DNA from: Candidatus Micrarchaeota archaeon
Lineage (GTDB): Archaea > Micrarchaeota > Micrarchaeia > Anstonellales > J096
Direction of reading: 5' to 3'
DNA: 64,000 nt
NCBI GenBank assembly: GCA_026982895.1
Contig: JALWQW010000003.1
Coordinates: 10,063-74,062 of the forward strand
The notes under the pieces were generated by a model. That model searched no databases, had not been told where the DNA came from, and saw only the letters and a program-made list of their open reading frames with translations. Position 1 is the first letter of the stretch, and every line of letters begins with the position of its first letter. Made by a program: the position numbers and the translations under genes. Below are positions 18,482-46,940 of this stretch, piece after piece.

Positions 18482-18516
18482 CTATTATTATGAAGCATAA
18501 CTTTTAAATGTTATTC

Positions 18517-30740: not shown

Positions 30741-31925
30741 ATGCTGGGATGGGGTGTTGCTTTGACAGGAGATGAAAAAGCTAAGTTGGAGAAGTTGATA
30801 GCTCTCACATTCGATAGTGATCCTGAAGTCAGGAAGAAGGCAGCGATGGAGCTGGCTAAGGTTGATGACGCTGGAGCCATGCTTGCTTTAATAGAACTCT
30901 CTTATGATAAAGATGAAGCTGTGGCTGATCTGGCTCAGAAAATACTGAATAAACGAAGGGGTATGAAGCCGAAAATGCTGCCTTTGAATGAGCTTTTCGA
31001 GGGCGTAAGTTTTGCCGCTGAAAAGAAGAAGGAGAAAAAAGCCTCAACTGTTAATCCCAAAGTCCTCGATCCTATAAAGAAGGTCCTTCTTAAGAAGTTC
31101 AAGGACGAGAAGAAAGCTGAACGCGCATTGAACAGGATTGTCGATCAATTGAAGGAGATGAAGAATGAGAAACCGCTTACGACGCAGGAATTCATTACTG
31201 CTTATGTTGAAGTCATGGGTCATGTGAACGAAGATACGCCGCCTGCTGTTGAAGCTATAGAAAAAGAACTCGCTGAAACGAGTGTACAATCTAAATCCGA
31301 TGAGCAGCCTCATGATTTCAAGCCAGCTGTAGAAGTTGCTATTCTTGAGAAGAGGGAAGAGTTTGATGAGCTTGCGTTGGTGGGCTCTGCTCGTTCAGCA
31401 CCTAAACCTGAAGCTTTAGCTCAAGAGCTTGAAGAAGTTAATCGCGATGATATTTATACTGCTGAGGAGAAAGCCGTCGTCGATACAGCGGCGCAGCTCC
31501 CAAAGACAGTATTCAAAATGGCTTATGACCAGTTCATGGCTTTGGATGGGGATGAGAAGCTGATGAAAAAGCAGGCCGATCTTTTAGAAAAGTATGTGAA
31601 GAAACAAATAGAGCTCGCCCATAAAATAGCCAAGAAGAAGTTTAAGGAGATAAAGCTTACAGATATAAGCGCTATAAAGCACGGTATGGCCAACATCACT
31701 ACTGAGCCTTTGGAAGTCGTCTCCGTTGATTTCATGAAGTACTACGAGGGCAAGCGCGTCAAAAAGGAGAAGCTCGCTACACGCGTCGTCGTTAGGGATA
31801 GTCAAGGCAAAGAAGGTGTCCTTTACCTCTTCGAAGGCAGGGGTAAGTTTTTACAGCCTGGCATGAAGTTCGCTTGGAGAAGGCAAAGGCGAAGCACTTC
31901 AAGGTCTTCAACGAAACCGCTTTAA
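30741..31925 (+). CDS. HEAT-repeat (PBS-lyase-type) coiled-coil protein
   Basis: 'DSDPEVRKKAAMELAKVDDAGAMLALIELSYDKDEAV' is an EZ-HEAT repeat. A long charged helical region follows. The C-terminal residues may be affected by a frameshift (see findings). Confidence 0.5.
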   Translation: MLGWGVALTGDEKAKLEKLIALTFDSDPEVRKKAAMELAKVDDAGAMLALIELSYDKDEAVADLAQKILNKRRGMKPKMLPLNELFEGVSFAAEKKKEKKASTVNPKVLDPIKKVLLKKFKDEKKAERALNRIVDQLKEMKNEKPLTTQEFITAYVEVMGHVNEDTPPAVEAIEKELAETSVQSKSDEQPHDFKPAVEVAILEKREEFDELALVGSARSAPKPEALAQELEEVNRDDIYTAEEKAVVDTAAQLPKTVFKMAYDQFMALDGDEKLMKKQADLLEKYVKKQIELAHKIAKKKFKEIKLTDISAIKHGMANITTEPLEVVSVDFMKYYEGKRVKKEKLATRVVVRDSQGKEGVLYLFEGRGKFLQPGMKFAWRRQRRSTSRSSTKPL

Positions 31926-32055: not shown

Positions 32056-33405
32056 CTATTCGCCAATGTATTTCTCGAGAAGCTCCTTTGCCTTTTTGGG
32101 ATCAGCTTTTCCTCTTGTCCTTCTCATCACTTGCCCCACTAAGAATGCAATGACTTTTTTCTCACCATTTTTGTAGTCCTCAATCGCTTTCTGAAACTCA
32201 CCTATGACTGCTTTAACCTCCTCGTCTATGGCAGAACTCTCCATTAGGAAGAGGTCAAGTTTTTCTGCTATTTTTCTTGGGTCGTCGTCGCCCCTGTCTA
32301 AAAGGTGTATCAGTATCTGCTCCATGCCATCGTCGCTTATCTCATTGTTGAAGAACATCTCCGCTAAGCTCTCCAAATGCTCATCGCTGATGGGCATCGT
32401 CGTGAAGCTTAGCCCCCTGTAGTTAAGCTGCTTCTTCACCGCTGTCCTCAGCCAATTAGCGACCTTCTTTGGGTTTAGCTTTTTGCTAAGCCTCTCGAAG
32501 AGTTCCGCTTCTCTAAACTCCCATGTCAGCTCTTCAGCGGCTTCTTTGCTTATGCCATATTCCTTTTGAAAGCGCTCTTCTCTCTCCCAAGGCCTTTCCA
32601 AGAGCTTCTCGTCAATCTTAATGGTGGTTAAGTCTATTGGCAGTAGGTCTGGGTCGGGCATGTAACGGTAATCTGCCTCGCTCTCTTTCTTCCTCGCAGC
32701 TTTTGTTATGCCCTTAGCCTCGTCGAAGTGTCTTGTCTCTTGCTCTACGCTTTTTCCCTCTTCTACGAGCCGTGTTTGTCTCTTTATCTCGTACTCTATT
32801 GCAGTTACGATGTTTTCAAATGAATTCACATTTTTAACTTCTACGCGGTTTCCGCCGTTTACGCTCACATTAACATCCGCTTTTACAGCGCCATTCTCCT
32901 TCACGATATTGTAATAGCTTAGCCCCTTCTCAAAGGCGAGTAGGAATCGCTTAACTTCATCTGCGCTTTTAAAGTCTGGGGCTGTAACGACTTCAATAAG
33001 AGGTGTCCCACTCCTATTATAATCGATTAGGCCCTTCTTTATCTCGTACTTTCCAGGGTCTTCTTCAACATGTATTTCCCATATTCCATAGCCCAAAAGC
33101 TCGCCATCCCTGCCTATTGGCTTGCTTGTTCTCTGATAGCCGGAGGGCAGGTCAGGATAAAAATAGTGTTTTCGCATGAAGTATGTATTTTTTTCTATTC
33201 GGCATTTGAGCATATGTGCTGCTAACACGCCGAGTTTTATGGCTTCTTCATTTACTGCAGAGGGTTTGCTTCCCGGTTGAGCTGTGCACACCTCGCATAT
33301 AACTGTGTTTGGCTCCTCGTCGCCCTTTGGGTTAGGACAGGAACAGAAGAGCTTCGCCTTTGTGTTAAGCTGCACATGTATCTCTAAACCAATCTTCACT
33401 TCCAT
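32056..33405 (-). CDS. gatB: Aspartyl/glutamyl-tRNA amidotransferase subunit B
   Basis: 'MEVKIGLEIHVQLNTKAKLFCSC' is a GatB-type N-terminus. The 449-aa length fits GatB rather than GatE. Confidence 0.8.
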   Translation of the reverse strand: MEVKIGLEIHVQLNTKAKLFCSCPNPKGDEEPNTVICEVCTAQPGSKPSAVNEEAIKLGVLAAHMLKCRIEKNTYFMRKHYFYPDLPSGYQRTSKPIGRDGELLGYGIWEIHVEEDPGKYEIKKGLIDYNRSGTPLIEVVTAPDFKSADEVKRFLLAFEKGLSYYNIVKENGAVKADVNVSVNGGNRVEVKNVNSFENIVTAIEYEIKRQTRLVEEGKSVEQETRHFDEAKGITKAARKKESEADYRYMPDPDLLPIDLTTIKIDEKLLERPWEREERFQKEYGISKEAAEELTWEFREAELFERLSKKLNPKKVANWLRTAVKKQLNYRGLSFTTMPISDEHLESLAEMFFNNEISDDGMEQILIHLLDRGDDDPRKIAEKLDLFLMESSAIDEEVKAVIGEFQKAIEDYKNGEKKVIAFLVGQVMRRTRGKADPKKAKELLEKYIGE

Positions 33406-33464: not shown

Positions 33465-34763
33465 TTAGAAAGGATTAGTAAATGGAGATCCTCCACTGTT
33501 CCTCTGGTCATTTATAACGCTGCGCGCTGTTAGCTCTACTAGCTGTCTTTTCATTCTCTCTAAACGCGCTTCGTCCGCTGGGAAGACGCCTATTTTGCTC
33601 AGAATCACATCTATCTCCTCTTTCATATCTGACCTTTCTTCTCGGAGGAATGTAAGTGCAGTGCCAACGTCGTAGTTCACTTTGACCCTTTTCACTTTGT
33701 CTACCATCTCCTCTTTGTTGGTAATTAAGCCACCCATATCCTCGAGTATCTTTTCTATTTCCTCTTCTGAGACTACATCCTCAACGTACATACTTATTTG
33801 ACTGTCAAGCTCACCTATAGCTTTTCTACCACCATCTAAATAGAAGGTGAGGTGGTTTCCATTTAGTTCAATAGATTTGAGATTAAGTGCTATTATTTTG
33901 TATATAGACAAGTCTTCCTCTTCTTTGCCTCTTTCCTCCTCACTTTCTTCAGCAGTTCTTTCTTCATCCTTCAAGTTAACTTTTTGGAATCTATATCTCT
34001 CAGCGATTTCATTCAGGAGTTTGACAGCTTCATTTCTTTCGGGATTACTGCTTAACTCCACTAATTTCTCCACAGCATCAGCAACCACCTCTTCGTCGTT
34101 TATTAATTCATTTTTTAGTTTCTCATCTATTTCGTTGCTTATCGTGGAGGCAATCAATAAATCCTCTTTATCTTTTATGAAATCTGCGAAACTCACCTTC
34201 AATATGTTGGCTAGTTCGATGAGGTTAGATAGGGCATTCTCTGAATCTCCTATGTCGCTTACAGTTACTTTGTTACTTCTTAGTATTTCCTCCACTGTTT
34301 CTTTATTCTCTATGAGTAGTTCATTGTCTAACTTAACTAACAGCTTAAGCACATCTGCTGTTTCCCAGCTGGATAACGGGCTTATATAGGTTGTGCCTCT
34401 GTTAGCAAGGTTTGTCTTTAACCACCGAATTATCTTTTTGCTGCTTTTGGCGAGCTCCTCTTTACTATAAGTGTTGAGTAAGCGTATAATCTTCATTTTA
34501 GTTTCGCTCCCATAAACATACATCCCTTTTTCTAGGAGTTGCCTTATATGAGGTTTAAGGCCTCTAGTTGCTAGTTCTTCCAGTATTTCATTGTGGATGG
34601 ATAGACTATCTATTTTTCCAAACTCTCCTAATAACTCCTCATCGCTCATTAGTCTGTAGCTTTTTATGTCCTTCCAAGGGTCGAAATCTCTACCATTGCG
34701 CAACTTGTATCCTCTCCACTTCTTTTCCTTAAAAGAATCCTTCCTCTTCTTTTTGAATGCCAT
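33465..34763 (-). CDS. Acidic hypothetical protein in the same strand block as the AAA/vWA pair
   Basis: 432 aa, highly charged and helical, with no recognisable motifs. Confidence 0.45.
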   Translation of the reverse strand: MAFKKKRKDSFKEKKWRGYKLRNGRDFDPWKDIKSYRLMSDEELLGEFGKIDSLSIHNEILEELATRGLKPHIRQLLEKGMYVYGSETKMKIIRLLNTYSKEELAKSSKKIIRWLKTNLANRGTTYISPLSSWETADVLKLLVKLDNELLIENKETVEEILRSNKVTVSDIGDSENALSNLIELANILKVSFADFIKDKEDLLIASTISNEIDEKLKNELINDEEVVADAVEKLVELSSNPERNEAVKLLNEIAERYRFQKVNLKDEERTAEESEEERGKEEEDLSIYKIIALNLKSIELNGNHLTFYLDGGRKAIGELDSQISMYVEDVVSEEEIEKILEDMGGLITNKEEMVDKVKRVKVNYDVGTALTFLREERSDMKEEIDVILSKIGVFPADEARLERMKRQLVELTARSVINDQRNSGGSPFTNPF

Positions 34764-34767
34764 GCGT

Positions 34768-37692
34768 TCACCTCCACCAGTTAGCTATTACTTTTGCTAT
34801 ATCCACACCTAGCTTTTTTATGTCCTTGTTTACTATCCTATTTCTTCCATACATTTCCTTATACTCTGAACTATCCTCGTGTTGCACTATTACGCTCACC
34901 ACGTTTATTAGCTCTTTTTCCGCCTGTTTAACCGCTTCTCTAACATCTCTAACTGCTTCACTCTCTTCATAAGATGTGCCCCCATGAAGGGGCTCCCCGT
35001 CGCTAACCACTATGAGCAGTTTGTTCTTGCTGTTCCTTTCTTTTAGTTTCTTGATTGCGTGTCTTATTGCTGCACCGTCTCTGTTCTCGTAAACACAACA
35101 AAACCCTACGTTTTCTGGAATGTCCAAGTAAGGTATCTTAGCTATGCCTGAATCGAAGTCCTTTATCTTAAGATAGTATGTTAGTTCTCTTCCGTGCACT
35201 GAAGCAAACCCTGCTATCTCATATTCTAATTCCCCTAAATCTCTTAGCGCCTTGGCAAGCACGTAAACCATATCTCTCTCCCCTTCAATAGCTCCATTAC
35301 GTGCTGTGGAACCGCTTAGGTCTATTAGGATTAGCACTGAGGCCTTGTTGGATTCATCTTTCCTCCTCTGCCAGAACTCGGGTTTTGCTAGTGCATTCTG
35401 CCTTACTTCATTTTTCCAGTTGAGATAGGCCTTTACGTTAAATCTGCCTCTGGTCTCATCTAAGCTTTCTCTAATCTTTCTCTCAACCAACTCCTCAAAG
35501 CTTTTGTGGATTTTTTGAATTATTCCATTGTAGCCTCTAGCGACGTAGCCCTCAGTTTTTGGGTATTCCACTTCCATAACAGGATGTCTGAACTGTGTTC
35601 CTTCGTAGTAATGGAGATCTCCTTTAGGGTCTCTATATTTTAGACCCTCTGTCACTTCACTATGGACATATTCATATTCTTCTCTCTCCTCTTTGCTGAG
35701 CTTGTCTAGCCCCCTCTTTTTCAGCTCTTTGCTCTTTTCAGCTTCCTTCTTTAGGCGTTCTAGCAGTTTCTCTTTATCCTCTTTGCTATCCACTAATATA
35801 GGCATTGAGATGGGATTGGTTAAGCCCCTTGGGACTTTATATCCTCCTTTCTTTTTGCTGTCCATCTCACTCTCTTTAGGATTGTCGCATTCTCTACCAC
35901 TTTCTCTTTCTTCTGAGGATGGCTCCTCATCCTCCTTTCCCAGCTCTTTCTTCCTCTCACCCAATTCGCCAAGCCTTTTCTCCATCTTCTTCTTTAACTC
36001 GTCTAAGCTTCCTCTGCCTTTACTCATCTTGTCCATTTCTTTCTTCAACTCTTCCAGAGCTTCCTGCTCTTTGCCAATCCTATCTAGCTCTTCCCTAATC
36101 TCGGAGAGCTTCTCTTCAACATCTTTAGCTCCTTCAGCATCACCCCTTCTTTTCATCTCCTCCAATTCTTTGCTCAGCTCCTCAGCTTCCTTCTCCAGCT
36201 CTTTCTTCCTCTCACCCAATTCGCCAAGCCTTTTCTCCATACTCTCTTTTGCCACTTCTTTTAACTTCTCAGCAGCTCTTTTCAGGTCGCTCTCATCGAA
36301 CTCTCCTTCCTCTGACTCACCGGCTTTACTTTCTACAATTTCTTTACCATACCATAGGAATATGAGCTCCATGATTTGCATAGAGATGTTTATAGAGTCT
36401 GCTATGTCACTTCCAATTTCCTTAACGGGTTCCACCATCTTAGCAGCGAGATTCAACTTTTCCCTCAATTTGGGGTGAAGCTCACCTTTAACTTTGCCGG
36501 TGTACAAATATTGTAATAGGCCCTCTAAGAAGTTTGATAGATTGTCCTCATATGTGAGTGCAGGTCTATCCTTTGCGTAAACTTCGATCATGGTTTTTAT
36601 GTACTTTCTGAAACCTGGGAAGCGCTCCATGGAAAGTGTGTCTATACGGATATCCTCTACGATGTTTAGTAAGTATTGGAAGAGCAACCTTTCTGGAAAT
36701 TCTTTTGCTACTTCATAAAATGTTTTGTATTCCTCTTTTCCTTCCACTCCGAATAGCCTCTTTATATCCTCACTAAATTTTTCATCCTCTTCGTCCCTTA
36801 TACCAATTCCTGAGATGATCTTTTTCTGGGATTTTAGGTTCTTTATGAGCTCCCAGTTTATCCTGTTTTTCTCTACTATTATGCTTCCATCTGGAGAAAT
36901 GTGCATGGCTTCATGGATCCCTTGCATTATATAAGTGTACTTATTTAGCACCTTGGTTGGGAACTTATCAATGGTTTTGGGTAGGTATATATAAGGGGGC
37001 AAGCTTTTTGGTCTGTCTCCACTCTTTATTATTGGCTCGTATAGCCCCCTTACTACAATCTTGGCCATTCTACTTACACGTTTTTCCATTTCCTCAAGAG
37101 AGACTTTTCTCCTTTCGTGGATTTTGGTGAAGTTTTCTAATACTCTCTCCCTGTTTTCTAGATCTTCTTTTAGCTTTTCTTCATCTTCCCTTACTTCTCT
37201 TATCCAAGGTGTCACATGGGCAAAGGGGTCTGCCGAGAGAATCTCTTTGGCTATTTTGTTAACCTCTAGGCTGTCGTTGAGGTCTGCCTCTCTAAACAAT
37301 TCATCTATCTCTCGAATGTACTCCTCTATACGTGGAACAGGCACACCTTTAGTTAGGAGCGTTCCCACCAAGCTTACATTCTCTACGAGCCCTGGCAGTG
37401 TTTTGAATTTCATCAATAGTCCTATAGCGTCGTCTAGCTCACCTTCTTTTAGTTCTCTATAGCTTCTTATGTTTTTTAGCATTAGTTGGATTATTAATCT
37501 CTGCTTTTTGTCATCCGTTTTTTCCTTAATATTATTCAGTCTCTCTTTAACTTTGCTTTCATTGTCTGCGAAGGCGCTGTATCCACTATAGTAGCTGCTT
37601 GTCCCGTACTCACTGTATGGATATGCAGTTCCCCAATAATCTTGTGTTTTCTTATCGGCTTTTTTTCTCTTCCACAACTTCTCTATACCCAT
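34768..37692 (-). CDS. Large coiled-coil protein with a C-terminal von Willebrand factor A (MIDAS) domain (CbbO/NorD-like partner of the AAA ATPase)
   Basis: C-terminal 'VLILIDLSGSTARNG' (DxSxS MIDAS) and 'LLIVVSDGEPL'. The central region is extremely K/E-rich coiled coil with an internal repeat. The stop is 2 nt from the AAA gene. Confidence 0.65.
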   Translation of the reverse strand: MGIEKLWKRKKADKKTQDYWGTAYPYSEYGTSSYYSGYSAFADNESKVKERLNNIKEKTDDKKQRLIIQLMLKNIRSYRELKEGELDDAIGLLMKFKTLPGLVENVSLVGTLLTKGVPVPRIEEYIREIDELFREADLNDSLEVNKIAKEILSADPFAHVTPWIREVREDEEKLKEDLENRERVLENFTKIHERRKVSLEEMEKRVSRMAKIVVRGLYEPIIKSGDRPKSLPPYIYLPKTIDKFPTKVLNKYTYIMQGIHEAMHISPDGSIIVEKNRINWELIKNLKSQKKIISGIGIRDEEDEKFSEDIKRLFGVEGKEEYKTFYEVAKEFPERLLFQYLLNIVEDIRIDTLSMERFPGFRKYIKTMIEVYAKDRPALTYEDNLSNFLEGLLQYLYTGKVKGELHPKLREKLNLAAKMVEPVKEIGSDIADSINISMQIMELIFLWYGKEIVESKAGESEEGEFDESDLKRAAEKLKEVAKESMEKRLGELGERKKELEKEAEELSKELEEMKRRGDAEGAKDVEEKLSEIREELDRIGKEQEALEELKKEMDKMSKGRGSLDELKKKMEKRLGELGERKKELGKEDEEPSSEERESGRECDNPKESEMDSKKKGGYKVPRGLTNPISMPILVDSKEDKEKLLERLKKEAEKSKELKKRGLDKLSKEEREEYEYVHSEVTEGLKYRDPKGDLHYYEGTQFRHPVMEVEYPKTEGYVARGYNGIIQKIHKSFEELVERKIRESLDETRGRFNVKAYLNWKNEVRQNALAKPEFWQRRKDESNKASVLILIDLSGSTARNGAIEGERDMVYVLAKALRDLGELEYEIAGFASVHGRELTYYLKIKDFDSGIAKIPYLDIPENVGFCCVYENRDGAAIRHAIKKLKERNSKNKLLIVVSDGEPLHGGTSYEESEAVRDVREAVKQAEKELINVVSVIVQHEDSSEYKEMYGRNRIVNKDIKKLGVDIAKVIANWWR
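35941..36240. repeat. Exact 45-bp direct repeat inside the vWA gene
   Basis: 'CAGCTCTTTCTTCCTCTCACCCAATTCGCCAAGCCTTTTCTCCAT' occurs at 35941-35985 and at 36196-36240, 255 bp apart. Both copies encode 'MEKRLGELGERKKEL'. Confidence 0.75.
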
Positions 37693-37693
37693 C

Positions 37694-38680
37694 TCAGTCC
37701 CCCTCCGGGACCTTTCCTCGTACTATGTCCATAAGTCCATCCAATTCCTCCTTTTCATCTACAATTGCGGATAATACTACCTCGAACGCATCTACCATGG
37801 CCATTCCTTGAGTTACAAGCTTCTTGACAAATACGCTGGCTCTTACACCGGGCAATTCCTTTACTTCATCGGAAGCACCTTCTCTTATTTCGTTCATTAT
37901 GTCCACGATGATGGCAGCCTCTTCTCTTGATATCTCTCCTCCATTGTCGTCGTTGAGGAGAATCTCCATCTCCACATCTTCGGGTGGATATCCTACTAGC
38001 TTTACTAAGAATCTTCCCTCAAAGGCAGGGCTCAATTTGTTCCTTGAATACTTACTTCCTGGATTGTATGAAGCTACTAATACAAAGTCATCGTGTGCAT
38101 CTATCTTTTCTTTTGTTTCAGGGATAACTATATACCTTCTATGATCTGTCAGGGGGTGCAGTAGTGCCAATACTTCGTTCTCTACGTTTACCACTTCATC
38201 AAAGTAGAATACAGCTCCACCTATCATAGCTGGAATGAGTGGCCCATCCTTCCATACGAGGAAGTCCCCATACGGTATGAGGCTTCCTATGACGTCAGAG
38301 TAGCCTACTTCTTTGTATCCTGCAATGGTTACGAGAGGTGTGTCGTACTTCTTTGCAACGGTCTCTAATGCTAAGGTTTTGCCCACACCCGTTGGTCCTT
38401 TTAGCAATAGTGGCAGCTTTGTTTCTTTTGCCAGGTCGAAGAGCTTTAGGATGCTGGCGTAGTCAATGTATCTTGGTATCCCGTCCACTTTAAACTTCTC
38501 TAACTCTGCTTGGATCTTCTCTTCAGTCCTTGCAGGTATTATTATTTTCTCCACACCTTTGCGCACCACTTTAAGAGAACCTTTTCTCTCTTCTTTCTCC
38601 ACTATCTGTGCCAAGGTCTCTCCGGCCTTTGGCTCTAAATTGGTTATTATTTTAGATACTTGTTCCACCATATAAATCAC
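37694..38680 (-). CDS. AAA+ ATPase of the MoxR/CbbQ/NorQ (AAA_5) type
   Basis: Walker A 'LLLKGPTGVGKT', Walker B 'VFYFDEV', and arginine-finger region 'SPAFEGRF'. Confidence 0.7.
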   Translation of the reverse strand: MIYMVEQVSKIITNLEPKAGETLAQIVEKEERKGSLKVVRKGVEKIIIPARTEEKIQAELEKFKVDGIPRYIDYASILKLFDLAKETKLPLLLKGPTGVGKTLALETVAKKYDTPLVTIAGYKEVGYSDVIGSLIPYGDFLVWKDGPLIPAMIGGAVFYFDEVVNVENEVLALLHPLTDHRRYIVIPETKEKIDAHDDFVLVASYNPGSKYSRNKLSPAFEGRFLVKLVGYPPEDVEMEILLNDDNGGEISREEAAIIVDIMNEIREGASDEVKELPGVRASVFVKKLVTQGMAMVDAFEVVLSAIVDEKEELDGLMDIVRGKVPEGD

Positions 38681-38702
38681 CTATTTCAACCCTTTTTCCT
38701 CC

Positions 38703-38716
38703 TATTTAAATTTTTT
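38703..38716 (-). promoter_or_regulatory. Putative TATA box for the AAA-vWA operon
   Basis: The reverse strand reads 'AAAATTTAAATAGGAGG', about 30 nt upstream of the ATG at 38680. Confidence 0.25.
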
Positions 38717-39031
38717 GTTTGTGGTTTTTGACACTTATCATCAATAATATCTTGTGGTTAGAAATGTTTTTAAATGCCTATCTTTCTGCACTTATTAACT
38801 CAAAATCTTGTTATGGGTGTAGAATCCCCCTCCCCAAAATACACCTTACTTTTTCTCTTAATGGTCTCAGGGGTATCTAAGGTAAAGAGATTTTTCTGAA
38901 GAGGAGTTTATCAGTGTGATAACCTTGGTGTTCTGGTGGGGAATTTAGCTGCTAACTTTCTCAATTAGCGGTTAGTTTTAGACTCACCTATTGGCGCCAA
39001 CATACACAATCACAACATTCTTTTTTTTCGT

Positions 39032-39820
39032 CTAAAAGAGCCTGCTAAATAAGCCTTTTCTCTCCACCAATTTTCCTTCTTCTTTTAATTCTTCCACTAT
39101 TGTGTCGACGATAACCTTAGCGAGCTTATTACATGCAATGTTGCATTCGCCCCCATACATTTCTAAGAACACTTCTCTGCCAATGCCTCTGAATCTATTG
39201 GGCTTTTTATCTATCGCTATGAGGAGGATTGCCATATCCATTGGTAATAATCTCTCTTTATCCCCCTCAAGAGCCTCTCTAATTTTTTCCGCTGCGCCCT
39301 TTCTAAACCTCTTTAATTCATCCTCTATACCTGCTTCTATGCCAATCTGGTTTATGGCATAAATCCTATCTAGAGCCCACTTTAAAGGCACTTTAACCTT
39401 GTGATTTCTCTTAACGACTATTTCGCGGGCAGGGTGCATTTCAAGGATTATCTCGTCTTCCCCTTTGTCAAAATCAACGCCGACCAGTTCCTTCATGAGG
39501 AAGTTGTAATCCACCACATTTCCTTCTTTAAAGCCATCATACTTTGCATCTTCCTCATCAAACTGTTGAAGAAGTCTCTCCAGCTCAGGCTCTATTTTGC
39601 CTTCTCGTCTTAGTCGTTCGAGCTCTTTGCCCTCCTCCTCACAGGCCTTTTTATATTTATCAAGCACCTTTTTGGCATTGTCGTCGAGTTCGCGCAACCT
39701 CTCTTTATCCTTTCTTCTCAAACCCAAAGCCATCCTTTGGAGTATGTTGAGCATGTTATCACCAACAAGTTGGCTCTTTCTTCCTTTTTTAAATCTCTCC
39801 TTGCCTTTTTTGACATTCAA
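39032..39820 (-). CDS. Charged helical hypothetical protein
   Basis: 262-aa ORF, K/E/R-rich, no recognisable motifs. Confidence 0.45.
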   Translation of the reverse strand: MNVKKGKERFKKGRKSQLVGDNMLNILQRMALGLRRKDKERLRELDDNAKKVLDKYKKACEEEGKELERLRREGKIEPELERLLQQFDEEDAKYDGFKEGNVVDYNFLMKELVGVDFDKGEDEIILEMHPAREIVVKRNHKVKVPLKWALDRIYAINQIGIEAGIEDELKRFRKGAAEKIREALEGDKERLLPMDMAILLIAIDKKPNRFRGIGREVFLEMYGGECNIACNKLAKVIVDTIVEELKEEGKLVERKGLFSRLF

Positions 39821-39921: not shown

Positions 39922-40752
39922 ATGGAACCCAGGAAGGTGTATTTAATAGCTCTTGCTCTTGCGGTCTTTGCGGCTTTCTCTGCTCTTACTGCTGGTGGTA
40001 TGGTTGCTGTTATAGGCGTTGTATTCGCTGTTATAGGAGCATTGGGTGCAACTGTTTTTTACAAATATGGCTTTGTAGTCTTCCCCACAATAACGTCGAT
40101 GCTTAAGAAAACGGCCGTGACGAAGAGCGGTTTTGAGATACCCCCCTCTCAAGATGTTATCATGAAGAAAACCAAGGAGGGTACATACTTTGCTGCTATG
40201 TATCTAACATTTAAGTTGTATCAGTCAGCCGTCGAATCAGAAGAAACTCAGCTCCTCACCTATAATAAAATGTTTGAGAGGGCTATGGCGGGCTTCAATG
40301 GAACTGCAAGGATAAATATGGTGCTTAACGCTGTAGACATTACATCAAAGAAACAAGAACTTGAAACTAAGAAAGCAGAGGCTCAGCTTCACTTACAGAG
40401 AGAGCGTGAAAAGGCTGAGCCAGATCCTCTTCGCATAGAGCGCTTTGAAAGGGAAGTTATGTACTGGAATGCTCAAATAGATAAACTGAGCAAGGGTTTG
40501 AGGCCCATGCGTGTCGTCATATATGCGAGCGTTTATGATGCTGGTTTAACGAAGGAAGAGGCTCTTGCTCGTGTTAGGGAACAGGCTATTCAGCTAAGAA
40601 CATTATTGAGCAATGCTTTGAATTGTGAGGTCTATCTATTAACTGCTGATGAAATGTTAAGGGCGTTTCAGTGGGATCAGTTCATTCCCGTTACAATGGA
40701 AGAAATGGAGGCTCAGATAGAGAAGGAAAAGAGCGCCGCGTCAAATCTTTGA
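39922..40752 (+). CDS. N-terminally membrane-anchored coiled-coil protein (paralog A)
   Basis: Gly/Ala-rich TM hairpin 'VFAAFSALTAGGMVAVIGVVFAVIGALGATVFYKYG', then a domain with 'EPDPLRIERFEREVMYWNAQIDKL'. Paralogous to the next gene. Confidence 0.5.
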   Translation: MEPRKVYLIALALAVFAAFSALTAGGMVAVIGVVFAVIGALGATVFYKYGFVVFPTITSMLKKTAVTKSGFEIPPSQDVIMKKTKEGTYFAAMYLTFKLYQSAVESEETQLLTYNKMFERAMAGFNGTARINMVLNAVDITSKKQELETKKAEAQLHLQREREKAEPDPLRIERFEREVMYWNAQIDKLSKGLRPMRVVIYASVYDAGLTKEEALARVREQAIQLRTLLSNALNCEVYLLTADEMLRAFQWDQFIPVTMEEMEAQIEKEKSAASNL

Positions 40753-40760
40753 GGGATAAT

Positions 40761-41573
40761 ATGGACACAAAATCAGCATATCTTGTCTTCTTTGGTTTAG
40801 GAGGTCTTGGGGTAGGCATTGCCTTTGCTACTGGTGGTGGTTTAGGTGTTATACTAGGCACTCTCCTTGCTATGATTGGCGCTGCGGGCGCTGTTTTAGT
40901 CTATAAATATGGATATTACCTTATCCCATACTTCCTTTATCACGACGAAAATGTTCTTCTTATGTTGGATGACTATGAAATTACACCAAGCCAAGAATTC
41001 ATAATAAAGAAGACTGGTGATGGAGAATATTATGCTAGCGGTTATTTGGCAATAAATGTATTCAAATCCGCTGTCGAGATGAGTGATGAACAAATAGTTG
41101 CATACAATAAGATGTATGAGCGTTTAATGGCGTCGTTTAAGGATATTATAAAAGTAGGGTATCTCCTCCACCTCGTCGATACATCAGATAAAAAAGCCGA
41201 TTTGGAAAGTAAGATAGAGGAAACACAGAAGCTATTGAAGAAGGAAAAGAGCAAAGCCCAGCCAGACCCCATAAAAGTAGATAATTATGAGCGTAAGCTC
41301 ATGTTTTGGCGTCATCAAGTCGATAGGGTTGTCAAGGGTGAGAAGCCTTTGAAGGTTTTATTATTTGCTCAGATTACGCAGAGAGGTGGAACTCGGGATG
41401 AGGCGTTGGCTAAAGTAAAGAGCAAAGTGAATGAAATGAGAACGCTTATAGCCAATACATTAAATTGTGATGTTCAGCCCATAAAAGATAAGGAGCTTGT
41501 GAGCTTTGTCCAATGGGATAAATTAGTCCCACTCACGCCTGAGGACTTGGAGAGGAGGGCTGAAGCAGAATAA
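40761..41573 (+). CDS. N-terminally membrane-anchored coiled-coil protein (paralog B)
   Basis: Start taken as the ATG at 40761. TM hairpin 'GLGGLGVGIAFATGGGLGVILGTLLAMIGAAGAVLVYKYG'. It matches paralog A at 'QPDPIKVDNYERKLMFWRHQVDRV' and 'TLNCDV'. Confidence 0.5.
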   Translation: MDTKSAYLVFFGLGGLGVGIAFATGGGLGVILGTLLAMIGAAGAVLVYKYGYYLIPYFLYHDENVLLMLDDYEITPSQEFIIKKTGDGEYYASGYLAINVFKSAVEMSDEQIVAYNKMYERLMASFKDIIKVGYLLHLVDTSDKKADLESKIEETQKLLKKEKSKAQPDPIKVDNYERKLMFWRHQVDRVVKGEKPLKVLLFAQITQRGGTRDEALAKVKSKVNEMRTLIANTLNCDVQPIKDKELVSFVQWDKLVPLTPEDLERRAEAE

Positions 41574-41582
41574 GGTGATATT

Positions 41583-43154
41583 ATGCCAACAAAACTTAAT
41601 TCATATCCTATGAAAATTCAGGAAAGCAATAACATGGAGCTTGCTAGGAGAAATATACTTCATCATCCACCAGAACCTCCGCCGGAGTTTTTAATGGAAA
41701 GTGCGTCGGAAGGTATCTATATAGGTAGAACAGATGTTTTAAATACGCCTTTCTTCTGGACGCCGAAATATGTTACGAATCCACATATAGCCATCGTCGG
41801 TATATCTGGTAGTGGTAAGTCCTATTTTATTAAGACTCTCCTAATCAGGGCTAGTTTTGTTTGGGATGCTAATGCCGTTATCATAGACTGGGCTGGCGAA
41901 TATAAGGATTGGGTATTGGAGACAGGAGGTAAGGTTGTTTCTTTGGGTAAGGGCAATTACCTAAACCTTCTCGATTTGGGTGGCATGCGCCCCTATGATA
42001 GAATTAAGCAGGTTATGTCGACATTGGAAGTGCTTAGCGACATTGGCCAGTATCCCGAACAGAAGCGTTTAACTGAGCAGGCCATTGAAGAGGCTTATGT
42101 TAGGGCTAAATTTAAGCTGGATTCTCGCGACCAAAGGGACGAGCTTGGCAATCCACTTGAACCGCCGACGCTCAAAGATGTCGTTAAGATATTGGAAGAG
42201 CAGAGGCAGATGGGAACCTATGAATATCCATCCGAGCTCAACAATGCTATTTACCGTCTACAAAAAATGACTCGCGAGGGTGAGGATTATTTCGCCCAAA
42301 GGAGCACGATTAGTTTAGATGACATCATCCACTCAGGTCTTGTAGACATGGATTTAACAGGTTTACCCGACGAGGAGACAAGAGCTCTCGGCGCTTTGAC
42401 TCTCCTCCAATTCATCAAGGAAAAGATGCGTCTGGAAGGGGCACAGGATGTTAAGGGCGTTAAACTCATAACAGTGCTAGACGAGGCGTGGAAGATAGCA
42501 GGAGCTGAGAATAGCGATGTCGTTATGATTGTGAGAGAAGGTCGTAAGTATAATTTCTCATTAATTGTAGCGAGCCAGAACCCGACAGATATAAGCCAGA
42601 GTATATTCAGCAATGTTGGAACGACTTTCATGCTTAAGACGAAGTTTGAATCCTATCTTGACTATTTACAGGGCTCTCTTAGGTTTACCGATTATTTAAG
42701 GAGCAAGATTATGCAGTTCGGTGTTGGACAGACAGCTGTGAATATGGCCTTCTATGTTCCTCTTCAATTCTCTCAAACATTTGTGATTAAGCACATTGAA
42801 GGTGAAGAACCTGTTAAAGATTACTTCATTACCTTTAAAGGTGTGGAGGGGGTGCCAATGGCATTTTCTATATCTATCAAGAAGAACGATTTCCGCGCCC
42901 GTCTGAGGCGTTTTGGGCTTAGTGATGAGCATGTTGAAGCCATAACCTCTAAATTCGAGAAGAATTCCCGTCGTTTAAATGTCGTTGATTTGGCTTTGGG
43001 TTTAGAGAGGTATGGTGTGGAACGAAGAACAATCGTCGATTTTCTCAAGGAGATGGGCGTCGACGATGCCACAATCATCAATATCTTTACAAAGGTCGAT
43101 TTCAAGAAGAGTGGCTCCTCTGGAAAGCCCACGAGGCTGTTCTTGAAGAAGTGA
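41583..43154 (+). CDS. VirB4/HerA/FtsK-superfamily P-loop ATPase (AAA_10/DUF87-like)
   Basis: Walker A 'IAIVGISGSGKS', Walker B 'LITVLDEAWK', and 'EGRKYNFSLIVASQNPTD', which is typical of the VirB4/TraG/HerA clade. Confidence 0.65.
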   Translation: MPTKLNSYPMKIQESNNMELARRNILHHPPEPPPEFLMESASEGIYIGRTDVLNTPFFWTPKYVTNPHIAIVGISGSGKSYFIKTLLIRASFVWDANAVIIDWAGEYKDWVLETGGKVVSLGKGNYLNLLDLGGMRPYDRIKQVMSTLEVLSDIGQYPEQKRLTEQAIEEAYVRAKFKLDSRDQRDELGNPLEPPTLKDVVKILEEQRQMGTYEYPSELNNAIYRLQKMTREGEDYFAQRSTISLDDIIHSGLVDMDLTGLPDEETRALGALTLLQFIKEKMRLEGAQDVKGVKLITVLDEAWKIAGAENSDVVMIVREGRKYNFSLIVASQNPTDISQSIFSNVGTTFMLKTKFESYLDYLQGSLRFTDYLRSKIMQFGVGQTAVNMAFYVPLQFSQTFVIKHIEGEEPVKDYFITFKGVEGVPMAFSISIKKNDFRARLRRFGLSDEHVEAITSKFEKNSRRLNVVDLALGLERYGVERRTIVDFLKEMGVDDATIINIFTKVDFKKSGSSGKPTRLFLKK

Positions 43155-43158
43155 TACT

Positions 43159-43689
43159 ATGCCAAAGGCCATTTGTGTAGCCACGGGCAAGGAAGTGAAG
43201 GAAGGCTACAAAGTTATAGACGACCCTGTTATAAAGTTTATTCGAGCGGTTAAGATGCGTATGGGTAGCTACAAGGGCAATTTACTTTATGTTTCTGAAG
43301 AGGCCAAGGAGGAATATGTCAAGAAGCGTAAAGGCTTCGAGAGGTATCTGCTCATAGCCACAGGCATTGCTATAGTTATCCTTGTTTTGGCGGTTTTTCT
43401 GCCTTTGGTTACAAGTGATTTCAATAGAGCTTTAAGCAATCTATTACCTTCTCTATTCTTTTCTCTCATATTCTATTTCTTAGCCTTTGCTCAATATGTG
43501 CCGCGCTTCGAGGATAAACTTACAAAGGTGCCTGCTAAATATATTTCTAAAGACGATACTCCCAACACGGAAAAAAATAATAATGCGAAATCCTCTAAAA
43601 AATCCTCTACACGCGCAAAAACTAATACAAAGCCAAGGGCTAAATCTAAAGCTTCTAAAGCAAAACCGCGTAGAGGAAAGCGGAGGTGA
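43159..43689 (+). CDS. Small two-TM membrane protein with a polybasic C-terminal tail
   Basis: TM segments 'LLIATGIAIVILVLAVFLPLV' and 'LLPSLFFSLIFYFLAFAQYV'. Tail 'KSSKKSSTRAKTNTKPRAKSKASKAKPRRGKRR'. Confidence 0.5.
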   Translation: MPKAICVATGKEVKEGYKVIDDPVIKFIRAVKMRMGSYKGNLLYVSEEAKEEYVKKRKGFERYLLIATGIAIVILVLAVFLPLVTSDFNRALSNLLPSLFFSLIFYFLAFAQYVPRFEDKLTKVPAKYISKDDTPNTEKNNNAKSSKKSSTRAKTNTKPRAKSKASKAKPRRGKRR

Positions 43690-43693
43690 TTGA

Positions 43694-44398
43694 ATGGAAA
43701 TTGCTATTGATACAATCGAGCTCCGGACAAAATCCAAAGTTGCTCTGACTGAAGTCTATAAAGTCATTTCAGGATTTAAAGGCTATTATATATCGAAAGA
43801 ATCTGGCCATGTCTACCTTGCTTCAATAGAAGAGCGAGACATCTCTGATAACCCAAAACGCTTCTTCATAATTGATTTTATGCCATCAGGTGTTGATATA
43901 TCCTTCACTGTTCAAGAAGATGAGAGCCCTTCTGTGAGGCGATTACAGGTTCTTTCGAAGGCCCTTCCTCTATTAGAGCCACTCATGCCAAAATATAATC
44001 TATCCACTCAGCCTTTATTGGCTCTCATGGATTCTGCTCTCACGGAATTCCTTCATAAATTTACAAAGGATGCTAAAGAGGTTTTGATAGACAATGACTG
44101 GCTGAAGGAGCGTGTCAAGGAGCTTCAAAATAAACTTTCCGCCTGCCAGACGAATGTTAAGGACTTGACAACTAAATTGTATGAGGTTAATTCTGAATTG
44201 GCATCTCTCAGGCTCAAATTAAAGAAATATGAGGTGCCATCAGACGAGGCGTTGAAGCAGCTTCTCATAGATTGGATAAAAGAGCATGACGGCGAAGTTG
44301 ATATCGAGGAGTTTTCAAAGGTCAGGGGCGTTCCTATCGCGAGGGTGGAGGATATGCTCACCCGCCTTGTAGAAGAGAAGGCTGTAAAACCTCTGTGA
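43694..44398 (+). CDS. Hypothetical cytosolic protein with a possible C-terminal winged helix
   Basis: 234 aa. The C-terminal 'EFSKVRGVPIARVEDMLTRLVEEKAVKPL' is wHTH-like. Its stop is 2 nt before the next gene. Confidence 0.45.
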   Translation: MEIAIDTIELRTKSKVALTEVYKVISGFKGYYISKESGHVYLASIEERDISDNPKRFFIIDFMPSGVDISFTVQEDESPSVRRLQVLSKALPLLEPLMPKYNLSTQPLLALMDSALTEFLHKFTKDAKEVLIDNDWLKERVKELQNKLSACQTNVKDLTTKLYEVNSELASLRLKLKKYEVPSDEALKQLLIDWIKEHDGEVDIEEFSKVRGVPIARVEDMLTRLVEEKAVKPL

Positions 44399-44399
44399 G

Positions 44400-46940
44400 G
44401 TGAAATCGTTGCCGAAATCGCCAAAAAGAGCTAAAAAACGCTTCATAATCATACGCGAGCCAAAATATACTAAGAGGTTCAGCGTTAAAAAGGAATCTCC
44501 TATAGACAAGTTGTTGGCAGCGTTATCCCCTCCTAAAAAAGTTAAGAAGGAAAGGGGTGTAGTGAAGAAAGTAGAAGAGAAGGTAGAGGTAAAGGGAAAG
44601 GATATAACTATTGGAAAGCTTTTGCCTGTCATTATTCTTTTACTCTTTATTGGCTTTGGTTATTGGCAGTATATGGAGTTTACTAAACTGCTTAAATCTG
44701 CTGCTGGCACCACATCCCGTGCTGCGGTTACTAATTCCATTTTAGTCTCGCCTATTTCATCATATATAACTGATTATGGAAAGTGGACTAATCCTTCTAA
44801 GGCTGTTATCTTCAATATAAATAGTAAAGATGCTGTGGATGTCTCTTATGGTGCTTTAAACAAGCAATATTATGGTGCTGTCTATGTGTTGTCTACATCG
44901 AAGCTTCGCAATGTTGTGGAGGGATTAGATGGTTTCATAGAAAAGGCAAAAGCATCACATCTGCTTGTTCAAAGGATATACTCACCCCATCAACTTCTTA
45001 ATCTTCCTAAAAAATCAATAGTTATAATCATCTCTGAATTCTTTCCATCTGAAGTTGCACCATATATATCTACTTTATTGTCCAGAGAAGTGCATATTGT
45101 TATTGTTGGAGCTTCCCCGGATTATCAAGAGGAGAGTGGCTTCTTTAAATCTGCAATGGGATTTTGGTCTAATTATGGTATAGCCTTCTCTGCCTATGGA
45201 GGATCAGCTAAACCTTTGAAAGCTAAAACTGTTAAATATAAAGTTGTAGGTGGCAAAACAGTAACAACAGATGGGCTGGTTGGTCCTGTTACTTATTTGA
45301 GAGATATACATATAGATAAGAAGCGCACTTATCCAGGAGATTTTGTATTTTTAACGGGTTCTGTTAGCCAAGATTTCAACAGATATTGGAAGAGTTCCTC
45401 AGATTTTTCTGCCGATTTGTATAGTGTCACAACATCTCTTATCAATAAATGGTTATCCGGACACTCTTCATATAAAGGTATAAAAGGTGCCGCATCGCTA
45501 GCTTATGGTACTTCAAGTGGAACTGGTGATGCATTCATATTTACTAAAACTTCTCAAAAGGGTAAACCTATTGCATATATGTTTGGCTATGCTCGAAAGG
45601 ATTATCCTGGCAAGGCATTATTTCATGATGTATCTCCTATTTATCCTTATTATATCTCTGGTCAAGCGTCTTTAATTGAATTCGAAGCATCACCTACTGA
45701 GCCAGATAGATTCACAAAGGTTTTGCTTAGTGTTTTTGACAGTTCATCCAAGGAGGTTGATTCGTTGCCAGTAAATAAAGGCTCTCTTATCCCAGCTGGT
45801 GTCCCTATGGAAGTGGAGTATTTCAATAAAGAGTTGAAGGAGGGCTCATATACATTTGTCTTCACAGATGCTAATAGTGGTGAAATATTTGCTAGAAGCT
45901 TTTTGGAGATGGGCAAGCCCACTGTTAGAGCAAAGGTTGATTTTACAAAAGCTCGATTTGGCTTTACATTTTTAGTTAATGGAAAGCCGTATCCTGTTCG
46001 TTCAGTAACCATTAAATATAAGGATTGGCATGCCACTTATAACAATATAGATCATGTTGTGGTTGATTTAAGTGATTTATTTGGTGGTGCTGTACCCTCA
46101 GGCACTTATGAGTTCGAGGTTTATATAGCTGGCGTAGAAAAGCCATATAAAATAAAATTCACAAAGGCAGACACAGTCGGTATAAAGCGGCTTTTATCGC
46201 CGACAAACATCATAATGATTCTCCTAGCCGGCGGCTTTTATATAGCAGGCGCTATTTTAAAGAGGCGTGAGGAATCACCTTACAGTATAGATGTGCCGGA
46301 TTTCGCCCCTGTTGAATATGAAACTATAGAAATTACCGAAGAGCAGCTCTTAAATGCCTTTGATGTCGTCAATGATTACTACAAATGGAAGCTTACGCCA
46401 TTAACTCTAGATGATATTAAGAAGGGCATTCAAATGGTTCTCATGAGAAAGGACTTAGTCCTCAACGACTTTAATGTTGAACTTGTCCTTGAAAATCTAG
46501 TTAAAGAAGGACTTATCCTTAGAGTAGATAAATTCTATTTGAAGAAGGAGTGGACTGAAAAGGGCTTTAGCGCCGAGCAGCTTATAATGTTCAGGGAATT
46601 GCGTGATACTGCCATTGAATCTGCTATTCCTTTCAAACCTTTATCCAAAGCGCTTCCACACACAAAATTAACTCTCCCCTGGCAGCAATTTTGGGTTTAT
46701 TTATATAATCCTCTTCAGAGGGAATCTATAATTAAGCACATTGTTAGAAATTATTCGCCGAAAGAAGATATTGTTCAAGTTATATTATTCTATGATGATT
46801 TTGAAAAAGAGTCCTTTGACCTAGTGCTTAGCGACGGCCGAAAAATAACCTCTCTCATAAAAGGCTATATCGACAATGAGTTCGTCTTCATCTTCACTCT
46901 AAAAGAGTTTATGAAAAAATTAAAGCAGCTCAAATCATAA
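44400..46940 (+). CDS. Large bitopic membrane protein with a basic N-terminus, a large extracytoplasmic domain and a cytoplasmic C-terminal domain
   Basis: 846 aa. TM1 is 'LLPVIILLLFIGFGYWQY' at about aa 75. TM2 is 'IIMILLAGGFYIAGAIL' at about aa 600. The N-terminal 70 aa are K/R-rich. Confidence 0.5.
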   Translation: MKSLPKSPKRAKKRFIIIREPKYTKRFSVKKESPIDKLLAALSPPKKVKKERGVVKKVEEKVEVKGKDITIGKLLPVIILLLFIGFGYWQYMEFTKLLKSAAGTTSRAAVTNSILVSPISSYITDYGKWTNPSKAVIFNINSKDAVDVSYGALNKQYYGAVYVLSTSKLRNVVEGLDGFIEKAKASHLLVQRIYSPHQLLNLPKKSIVIIISEFFPSEVAPYISTLLSREVHIVIVGASPDYQEESGFFKSAMGFWSNYGIAFSAYGGSAKPLKAKTVKYKVVGGKTVTTDGLVGPVTYLRDIHIDKKRTYPGDFVFLTGSVSQDFNRYWKSSSDFSADLYSVTTSLINKWLSGHSSYKGIKGAASLAYGTSSGTGDAFIFTKTSQKGKPIAYMFGYARKDYPGKALFHDVSPIYPYYISGQASLIEFEASPTEPDRFTKVLLSVFDSSSKEVDSLPVNKGSLIPAGVPMEVEYFNKELKEGSYTFVFTDANSGEIFARSFLEMGKPTVRAKVDFTKARFGFTFLVNGKPYPVRSVTIKYKDWHATYNNIDHVVVDLSDLFGGAVPSGTYEFEVYIAGVEKPYKIKFTKADTVGIKRLLSPTNIIMILLAGGFYIAGAILKRREESPYSIDVPDFAPVEYETIEITEEQLLNAFDVVNDYYKWKLTPLTLDDIKKGIQMVLMRKDLVLNDFNVELVLENLVKEGLILRVDKFYLKKEWTEKGFSAEQLIMFRELRDTAIESAIPFKPLSKALPHTKLTLPWQQFWVYLYNPLQRESIIKHIVRNYSPKEDIVQVILFYDDFEKESFDLVLSDGRKITSLIKGYIDNEFVFIFTLKEFMKKLKQLKS

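Follow-up and report, generated by a model that had tools for sequence, protein, structure and literature searches.

Analysis of a 64-kb window, that is, the whole stretch of 64,000 nucleotides taken from contig JALWQW010000003.1 of a Candidatus Micrarchaeota archaeon, revealed a unit of three minus-strand genes (Table 1) encoding an AAA+ ATPase, a 974-aa von Willebrand factor A (vWA) protein (hereafter designated the adaptor), and a third protein. We consider it probable, at roughly 0.7, that this chromosomal unit of an uncultivated, Micrarchaeia-like (DPANN) archaeon, so placed by the nearest relatives of the unit, specifies a machine of the NorQD/CbbQO design that remodels proteins at the expense of ATP. 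An earlier note on the same DNA (hereafter the original prediction) had recognized a MoxR/CbbQ-type AAA+ protein with a vWA partner compared to CbbO/NorD, and this was borne out by the AAA_5 and CbbQ_C matches of the ATPase, by its match to NorQ (E = 2.9e-40), and by the match of an adaptor family profile to NorD (1.5e-68). The note had passed over the most informative part of the unit, namely, a conserved N-terminal domain of the adaptor that carries an HExxH motif.

The ATPase matched Pfam AAA_5 (1.6e-25; 90.2 bits, cut-off 22) and CbbQ_C (3.8e-5; 24.2 bits, cut-off 20.6). Numbered from the ATG at 38671, it contains Walker A (GPTGVGKT, 92), Walker B (FYFDE, 155), and sensor-1 (SYNPG, 201) motifs, an Arg-finger region (FEGRF, 217), and a sensor-2 region (GVRAS, 275), and its N-terminus has about 55 residues more than that of NorQ. 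Among sequences of the Protein Data Bank (PDB), the highest summed score was that of Midasin (4.6e-63, four AAA modules taken together), and NorQ (2.9e-40) and CbbQ (5c3c; 2.9e-38) scored far above classical MoxR (2r44; 3.6e-4); no chain named RavA or CobS was among the PDB matches at E ≤ 1e-3. The nearest homologue, with 46% identity, is encoded in a metagenome-assembled genome (MAG) of Candidatus Anstonellales (class Micrarchaeia, kingdom Nanobdellati, that is, DPANN), followed by bacterial CbbQ/NorQ proteins at 33–38% identity. A position within the GvpN or CbbQ clades, with standard clients elsewhere, would have told against the original prediction. The ATPase scored 54.6 bits with the GvpN model TIGR02640 (cut-off 266.8), with no gvp genes among the window genes scanned, and in a neighbour-joining tree, crude and indicative only and drawn with GvpN, CobS, and midasin references left out, the window and Anstonellales ATPases stood beside, not within, the bacterial CbbQ/NorQ proteins as their sister group, the ATPases of more distant Micrarchaeota loci lying further out. 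The AAA_5 and CbbQ_C domains with their Walker, sensor, and Arg-finger motifs, together with the adjoining vWA/MIDAS (metal ion-dependent adhesion site) partner, are features of the CbbQ/GvpN/NorQ (CGN) subfamily, and, as judged from the sequence, the ATPase is a MoxR-class AAA+ protein of this subfamily and not a GvpN, CobS, or RavA protein.

The C-terminal part of the adaptor is of the NorD type. Residues 780–968 matched Pfam CobT_C (2.7e-6) and VWA (5.7e-5), and MIDAS residues are provided by DLSGS at 791–795 (D791, S793, and S795), N870, and D898, in line with the earlier statement that a MIDAS-containing vWA domain occupies the extreme C-terminus. GAAIRHA and SDGEP motifs are also present; a phmmer comparison of the adaptor with the solved NorD (5.1e-10) aligned the GAAIRHA and SDG(E/K)P motifs of the two proteins. 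When a profile was made from 15 family members, the match to NorD (profile positions 503–810) reached 1.5e-68, as against 4.8e-20 for CobT. The Foldseek search with the adaptor model likewise ranked the NorD VWA domain first (1.8e-10; target TM 0.64), followed by the MIDAS domains of MDN1/Rea1. Moreover, a beta-hairpin was predicted at residues 692–709 in the AlphaFold2 (AF2) model, at the position of the NorD finger, and this hairpin is likely to be the pore-inserting finger. Taken together, the profile and Foldseek matches to NorD indicate a NorD-type vWA domain with a finger and a C-terminal contact region.

The N-terminal half of the adaptor includes a conserved domain (hereafter the N-domain) with the motifs HEAMH (260–264) and NIVEDIRID (343–351). 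The whole 974-aa query, in a word-indexed search, returned only itself and one other protein (P0002) because the K/E-rich linker swamped the search; residues 1–455 were therefore used in its place, with exhaustive HMMER. Among 1.84 billion representative proteins, only 14 were found at E ≤ 1e-3, most of them 800–1,100 aa long and, where the source was named, derived from Micrarchaeota/Micrarchaeia MAGs and a few bacteria. In each of the 11 full-length relatives, HExxH falls in one and the same column of the alignment. The motif N-x-x-[ED]-D-x-R-[IV]-[DES] is shared by every family member, including three that are truncated N-terminally, with N343, D347, and R349 invariant. The AF2 model of residues 95–460 (pLDDT 79, pTM 0.73) places a helix, three short strands, the HExxH helix, an insertion, and a long helix with the acidic motif in this order, which would look like the arrangement expected of a gluzincin. 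Judging from these motifs, the N-domain most likely forms a zincin-like metal-binding site serving in client recognition and possibly cleavage; we infer that through the HExxH...D site the machine gains a zinc peptidase activity or else a place where metal is bound and delivered.

Traces of the same domain were found in NorD and CobT. Genuine NorD proteins (Agrobacterium, Aquabacterium plasmids) lack HExxH, yet the Agrobacterium NorD and the solved NorD keep the LPxxxDxFPxxxLN motif upstream and the FPG motif downstream, and CobT contains VEQARVEA, a remnant of the acidic motif or a sequence related to it. We conclude that the adaptor belongs to a phage/NorD/CobT vWA superfamily and that its N-domain retains intact the motifs of a domain which in NorD has degenerated. 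The kinship with CobT could also be taken to mean that the pair corresponds to CobS/CobT, the motor of an aerobic-type cobaltochelatase, or drives another tetrapyrrole chelatase, a reading to which the CobT_C match of the vWA domain, the match of the family profile to the solved CobT, the related VEQARVEA motif, and the full-length match of phrog_249 (‘porphyrin biosynthesis’) to the ATPase (1.5e-36) would all lend themselves. However, the family profile favours NorD over CobT by 48 orders of magnitude, and the PDB search gave NorQ and CbbQ with no chain named CobS at the above threshold, though CobT chains (9uka) were in the same file. Furthermore, the ATPase has no NCBIfam CobS or Pfam CobS_N match, the CobT_C match being only to a generic vWA domain; phage CobS-like proteins are only 24–28% identical to the ATPase (1e-6 to 1e-8); and no CobN, corrin, or porphyrin gene occurs among the window genes scanned. 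To our knowledge, DPANN archaea with genomes of about 1 Mb also lack B12 synthesis. A chelatase motor is accordingly hardly credible, in contrast to a NorQD-like remodeller.

The linker between the N-domain and the finger is highly charged. It had been described as an unusually long, about 250-residue K/E coiled coil, and the charge (56% D/E/K/R over about 456–690) and the length both held: on a common yardstick it measures 208 residues against 31–161 in 12 relatives, the longest of the 13 family members measured. It is not, however, a single coiled coil, since the AF2 model of the full-length adaptor (mean pLDDT 65) shows a helical hairpin at 467–557 (pLDDT about 90), a disordered segment at 558–633, and then two more helices. 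Nor is the K/E character conserved. The linker of the closest orthologue (Anstonellales) is proline-rich and disordered, not K/E-helical, and the coiled-coil character is therefore a lineage-specific property of a fast-evolving tether. Part of the linker has arisen by internal duplication: two 83-nt copies, direct, in frame, and 86% identical, lie 255 nt (85 codons) apart, so that MEKRLGELGERKKEL is encoded twice. This shows a recent, lineage-specific duplication that accounts for part of the linker length. In NorD, the linker is essential and has been proposed to be stretched by ring rotation (PMC13036017).

The layout of the three genes is compact, with intergenic gaps of 1 nt between the ATPase and adaptor genes and 4 nt between the adaptor and third genes. 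The three open reading frames (ORFs) of the earlier description were found on the minus strand at the coordinates given, except that the first gap is 1 nt, not 2 nt, and that the ATPase is likely to have 325 residues rather than 328; an independent gene caller also started it at ATG 38671. Homologues of all three genes occur in the same order in the Candidatus Anstonellales genome, and the ORFs are thus real genes and not chance ORFs. About 33 nt upstream of ATG 38671, TTTAAATA was read from the sequence as a perfect archaeal TATA box (consensus TTTAWATA), preceded by an A-rich stretch resembling a B recognition element (BRE), and is the putative promoter of the three-gene unit. The downstream gatB, mentioned in the original prediction as lying on the same strand, was rejected as a member. 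Because it has its own TATA-like box (ATAAATA) within the 59 nt that precede it and does not adjoin the pair in the closest relative (the Anstonellales locus), the unit comprises three genes and not four. On the other side, a 262-aa gene (39032–39820), which has no family match and no homologue in the relative's locus, was excluded because 351 nt and the unit's own promoter box intervene. This intergenic region (38681–39031) is unusually long for an otherwise tightly packed genome, and no Rfam match was found in it at gathering thresholds.

Table 1. Features of the three-gene unit, parts of the adaptor, and related loci. Positions refer to the window except in the rows for the loci (L002–L013), where they refer to the locus.
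Feature	Position	Strand	Description
AAA+ ATPase gene	37694–38680	minus	ORF of 328 aa from GTG 38680; likelier start ATG 38671, 325 aa
vWA adaptor gene	34768–37692	minus	ORF, 974 aa
Adaptor residues 1–455	36328–37692	minus	Basic disordered N-terminus (1 to about 80) and conserved N-domain (about 95–455)
Adaptor residues 456–690	35623–36327	minus	Charged linker: 30% D/E, 26% K/R (56% D/E/K/R)
Internal duplication in linker	35922–36004 and 36177–36259	minus	83-nt copies, 86% identical
Adaptor residues 691–974	34768–35622	minus	Predicted beta-hairpin 692–709 and NorD-like vWA domain
Third gene	33465–34763	minus	ORF, 432 aa
TATA box TTTAAATA	38704–38711	minus	About 33 nt upstream of ATG 38671; read from sequence; putative promoter
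gatB	32056–33405	minus	ORF, 449 aa; NCBIfam GatB 5e-149
L002			Anstonellales locus; AAA upstream, orphan gene downstream of adaptor
L003			Micrarchaeota-type; AAA upstream, ATP-grasp gene downstream of adaptor, three ankyrin genes upstream (4291–6797)
L004			Micrarchaeota-type; AAA upstream, HEAT_2 downstream, array 2219–15369
L005			Micrarchaeota-type; AAA upstream, HEAT_2 downstream, array 10447–12653
L006			Micrarchaeota-type; AAA upstream, HEAT_2 downstream, array 5995–18763
L008			Bacterial; upstream ATPase with CbbQ_C
L010			Partial JGI metagenome locus; AAA upstream
L013	2429–5659		Bacteroides phage BS162P1 (OP172706.1); AAA upstream

The chromosomal setting bears on the question of whether the unit is a virus-derived chaperone for virion or appendage assembly, residing in a provirus or integrated element, like ATV p618/p892 or the MoxR and peptidase-vWA proteins of jumbo phages. 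In the Foldseek search against predicted viral structures, the N-domain model gave matches (3.5e-5 to 1e-2; query TM about 0.45) to the N-terminal parts of vWA proteins of the haloarchaeal tailed viruses HCTV-2 and HHTV-2 and of ‘CobT-like’ proteins of Gordonia phages, and only viral proteins were among its structural matches. The same architecture is found in Bacteroides phage BS162P1 and in jumbo phages (PMC7824862), and a CedB/VirB4/HerA-like gene cluster (39922–46940) lies divergently next door, with a weak match to a terminase PHROG (3e-12). Nevertheless, nothing like a capsid, portal, integrase, or att site was detected, PHROGs being a weak test on the neighbours; the GC content is even across the window, which is identical in sequence to an ENA metagenome scaffold of 96 kb; and the flanks hold housekeeping genes, including gatB, L21e, TBP, and DUF655, the window also containing eRF1, Cbf5/TruB, FtsZ, GatA, and geranylgeranyl reductase genes. 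Moreover, the pair is surrounded by different sets of housekeeping genes in six Micrarchaeota contigs, the largest of 559 kb; patterns of the close family retrieved no relative from the 2.9 million viral contigs of IMG/VR; and the N-domain had no tblastn match among 50,697 phage records. A viral assembly chaperone is thus possible in origin, not in context, and as an account of the present unit it is unlikely.

The coupling of the ATPase with the adaptor is conserved, as the survey of gene neighbourhoods called for by the original prediction showed: in eight of nine related loci (L002–L006, L008, L010, and L013), the gene immediately before that of the adaptor encodes an AAA protein. The ninth (L007) encodes the distant bacterial homologue P0135 (1135 aa, HEIGH), the only adaptor lacking an AAA neighbour. 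A wider search for loci yielded only the Anstonellales genome among GTDB genomes and one partial locus among JGI metagenomes. In the more distant Micrarchaeota, the slot of the third gene is held by HEAT-repeat proteins; the HEAT_2 arrays of L004–L006 comprise 3–8 paralogues, several overlapping by a few bases at their start/stop codons. Together with the ankyrin genes of L003, they make up a recurrent association of the pair with alpha-solenoid genes, as counted in these four loci. Near the pair of the window, the only recognizable HEAT protein is a 394-aa HEAT_2/Cnd1-like protein (30741–31925, plus strand), convergent with gatB and two genes away from the unit.

The same loci were informative as to whether the pair could be a CbbQO-like activase for a form III or II/III Rubisco encoded elsewhere in the genome. 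Such a role would fit the sister position of the ATPase to CbbQ/NorQ, and at 5498–6430 (minus strand) the window encodes an IF-2B-family protein, probably a ribose-1,5-bisphosphate isomerase (TIGR00511, 252 bits, cut-off 314), an enzyme that works with form III Rubisco in archaeal nucleotide (AMP) salvage. The distant bacterial P0135 also adjoins a form III-like Rubisco gene; however, P0135 is a single homologue, with no AAA partner, and no Rubisco gene was found in the window or within 8–10 kb on either side of the pair in six archaeal loci. We know of no activase described for form III Rubisco, and a function of this kind appears quite improbable. In L007 (4670–11408), P0135 is encoded divergently beside an ADP-ribosylglycohydrolase and the 582-aa form III-like Rubisco (TIGR03326, 257 bits, below cut-off), with NACHT and Ser/Thr kinase genes nearby.

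The third protein, 432 aa long and acidic (pI 5.1) as described in the original prediction, has a basic N-terminal tail (1–30), an acidic patch (263–285), a conserved N-terminal part (about 1–260), and a unique C-terminal half. The homologue search returned only the protein itself, and Pfam, NCBIfam, PHROGs, PADLOC, and PDB sequences likewise gave nothing. A single homologue could be detected, namely, a 273-aa protein at the same position in the Anstonellales locus, 29–31% identical over the N-terminal 260 or so residues (8e-12 by BLASTP, 1e-13 by phmmer). An hhalign comparison with the HEAT neighbours was negative, giving no evidence for a HEAT protein, and self-comparison detected no internal repeats, a test of low power in that the window's Pfam-positive HEAT_2 protein also gave none. 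The third protein is possibly an adaptor or a client/substrate, and it is the first candidate for such a role.

The MoxR-vWA-X layout, with a rapidly diverging third gene and linker, would also fit a vWA-MoxR ternary (VMAP) system serving in conflict or defence, in which the third gene would be the sensor or effector. The vWA proteins described by Kaur et al. 2020 (PMC7159879) carry coiled-coil or HEAT modules and, occasionally, a metallopeptidase module. Against this, PADLOC gave no meaningful match for any of the three proteins, and no VMAP/NCBIfam conflict model matched the third gene, nor was an effector domain, a VMAP third component, or a mobile-island context found. VMAP systems use classical MoxR ATPases, whereas the ATPase here is of the AAA_5/CbbQ type. 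There is little reason to expect a defence system.

A mechanism for this remodeller can be proposed by homology to the solved NorQD complex (PMC13036017; PMC9976466). The ATPase would assemble into a hexameric ring and bind one 974-aa adaptor, whose vWA domain would reach with its beta-hairpin finger into the pore and turn its MIDAS metal site towards an acidic residue of the target protein. The N-domain may dock on the small subdomain of the ATPase and/or on the client. ATP hydrolysis would then rotate the vWA module relative to the N-domain and stretch the linker, thereby exerting a pull on the target.

Several observations weigh against the remodelling machine outlined here. The hexameric state of the ATPase, its 6:1 ratio to the adaptor, and the contact of the finger with the pore are carried over by analogy with NorQD. 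No client was identified: no NOR (nitric oxide reductase), Rubisco, gas-vesicle, hydrogenase, or CobN gene is present among the Pfam-scanned genes of the window, in accord with the earlier remark that no obvious client is encoded nearby. The MIDAS Thr is replaced by Asn (N870) in the window adaptor, a variant common to several relatives and to phage versions, and this adaptor lacks the YPEWD (YxEWD) motif found in the finger of NorD and most relatives. As for the N-domain, Foldseek against the PDB gave nothing significant, the best zincin being abylysin (4jiu) at E = 8, and the adaptor has no match to a Pfam peptidase family. Finally, the third gene may be dispensable, as its conservation extends to just one further genome.

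A bolder proposal is that the unit represents a cellular, Micrarchaeia-wide machine whose ATP-stretched tether has an active zincin at one end and a MIDAS at the other. Its clients would be alpha-solenoid proteins (HEAT/ankyrin arrays and, in the window, the orphan third protein), which might be processed or loaded to serve at the cell surface or in contact with a host. This is speculative, and we regard it as doubtful. If it were true, the N-domains of NorD, CobT, and perhaps CbbO (which was not among the sequences compared) would be degenerate relics of a peptidase-like domain, which would recast the evolution of the target-recognition half in metal-insertion and activase chaperones.

MoxR-vWA machines are widespread, and their clients are known for only a few: NOR, Rubisco, CobN, LdcI/Frd, and pre-60S particles. 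DPANN archaea have small genomes; the persistence in such genomes of a NorQD-like pair with an apparently intact HExxH domain therefore argues for an important role that is neither respiratory nor autotrophic. Moreover, the shared N-domain ties together NorD, apparently a degenerate form, with CobT and the phage ‘CobT-like’ or ‘porphyrin biosynthesis’ proteins; by this link, ‘CobS/CobT’ would seem to be a misnomer for many of the phage and archaeal genes so labelled.

Other parts of the window were noted in passing. The six co-directional genes at 39922–46940 (plus strand) are divergent from the region upstream of the ATPase gene. One of them encodes a 523-aa CedB/VirB4/HerA-like ATPase (41583–43154) with NCBIfam CedB (4.6e-22) and VirB4-like (1.9e-18) matches, all below cut-off, and Pfam DUF87, AAA_10, and TraG P-loop matches; the other five products (276, 300, 176, 234, and 846 aa) have no family match. 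The cluster, which may encode a Ced-like DNA-import or type IV secretion-like apparatus, does not adjoin the pair in the Anstonellales relative. A 1099-aa protein (15182–18481, minus strand) with Big_1/invasin-D3 immunoglobulin-like domains (4.8e-33) is likely a surface adhesin, of possible relevance to a host-attached lifestyle. Four large ORFs have no Pfam match at 1e-5: 59912–63901 (minus, 1329 aa), 12044–14110 (minus, 688 aa), 21040–22953 (plus, 637 aa), and 51086–52537 (plus, 483 aa).

Among known systems, the closest counterpart is NorQ/NorD, which inserts FeB into cytochrome c nitric oxide reductase and has been solved by cryo-EM (9qh6, 9qhd; Kahle et al. 2026, PMC13036017). Both ATPases are of the CbbQ/NorQ-type AAA_5 class, and in the tree alignment the AAA core of the archaeal protein is about 30% identical to that of genuine NorQ; the adaptor gene follows the ATPase gene immediately; and the adaptors share the order of N-domain, long linker, finger, and C-terminal MIDAS vWA domain (PMC13036017, PMC9976466). 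The vWA domain of NorD is the best match of the archaeal one in both sequence and structure, and the N-domains have the LPxxxDxFPxxxLN and FPG motifs in common. In contrast to NorD, the archaeal adaptor is about 330 residues longer, keeps the HExxH and [ED]DxR[IV]D motifs, has Asn for Thr in the MIDAS, and lacks the YPEWD finger motif, while the archaeal ATPase has the N-terminal extension of about 55 residues and the host is an archaeon. Furthermore, no norCB or other nitric oxide reductase gene was found in the window or in the related archaeal loci, whereas the genuine norD loci (L011 and L012) have a norB or cytochrome oxidase-like gene directly upstream. CbbQ/CbbO (Tsai et al. 2015; review PMC5437159) resembles the archaeal pair in the ATPase clade and in the large adaptor with a C-terminal MIDAS vWA domain; a 6:1 complex would be expected by analogy, and a distant bacterial relative of the adaptor lies beside a CbbQ-type ATPase (L008). 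The difference again lies in the surroundings, the pair having no Rubisco gene within the regions surveyed above.

The adaptor itself has its nearest counterpart in phages. Pairs of MoxR and a vWA cochaperone with an N-terminal metallopeptidase domain have already been described in jumbo phages (Iyer et al. 2021, PMC7824862), so that the architecture has less novelty than the original prediction suggested; the metalloprotease-like motif itself had until now been reported from phage versions alone. These pairs, usually annotated as CobS/CobT or ‘porphyrin biosynthesis’, have the same two-gene architecture as the archaeal pair, with an HExxH metallopeptidase-like domain at the N-terminus of a vWA protein encoded beside a MoxR ATPase. 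In Bacteroides phage BS162P1, an unannotated example of such a pair of MoxR and a putative zincin-vWA protein, an AAA protein (400 aa, GPTGTGKT) precedes a protein of 618 aa in which HEGCH and, 26 residues further on, NILEDERIE are combined with the MIDAS motif DESGS, both proteins being annotated as ‘hypothetical protein’. The HExxH...N-x-x-E-D-x-R-I-[DE] signature and the MIDAS Asn for Thr are common to the archaeal and phage adaptors, and the N-domain model matches the viral homologues. Nevertheless, the archaeal pair resides in a cellular chromosome among housekeeping genes and not in a virus genome, its ATPase is nearer to NorQ/CbbQ (1e-40) than to phage CobS-like proteins (1e-6 to 1e-8), about 55 inserted residues separate HExxH from the acidic motif in its adaptor, whose linker is 4–5 times longer, and the unit includes a third orphan gene.

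Midasin/Rea1, the eukaryotic pre-60S ribosome remodeller, also has AAA_5 modules and a MIDAS domain at the extreme C-terminus after a long charged linker, and this MIDAS domain is the second-best structural match of the adaptor vWA domain. It is, however, a single polypeptide of about 4,700–4,900 residues with six fused AAA modules and no HExxH domain, and its clients are assembly factors with ubiquitin-like (UBL) domains, whereas the archaeal ATPase consists of one AAA module (325 aa) encoded by a separate gene and the pair shows no link to ribosome assembly here; the similarity is at the module level only. Since there are precedents for every component and for the fused architecture, the machine does not form a new category. 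New with respect to the literature searched are the lineage, the chromosomal setting, the recurrent HEAT/ankyrin neighbourhoods, and the proposal that the NorD N-domain is a decayed form. Collectively, the unit is a cellular, DPANN-lineage variant of the MoxR-vWA remodeller, which combines a NorQ/CbbQ-like motor with a phage-like, putatively zincin-type vWA adaptor on an exceptionally long, recently expanded tether.

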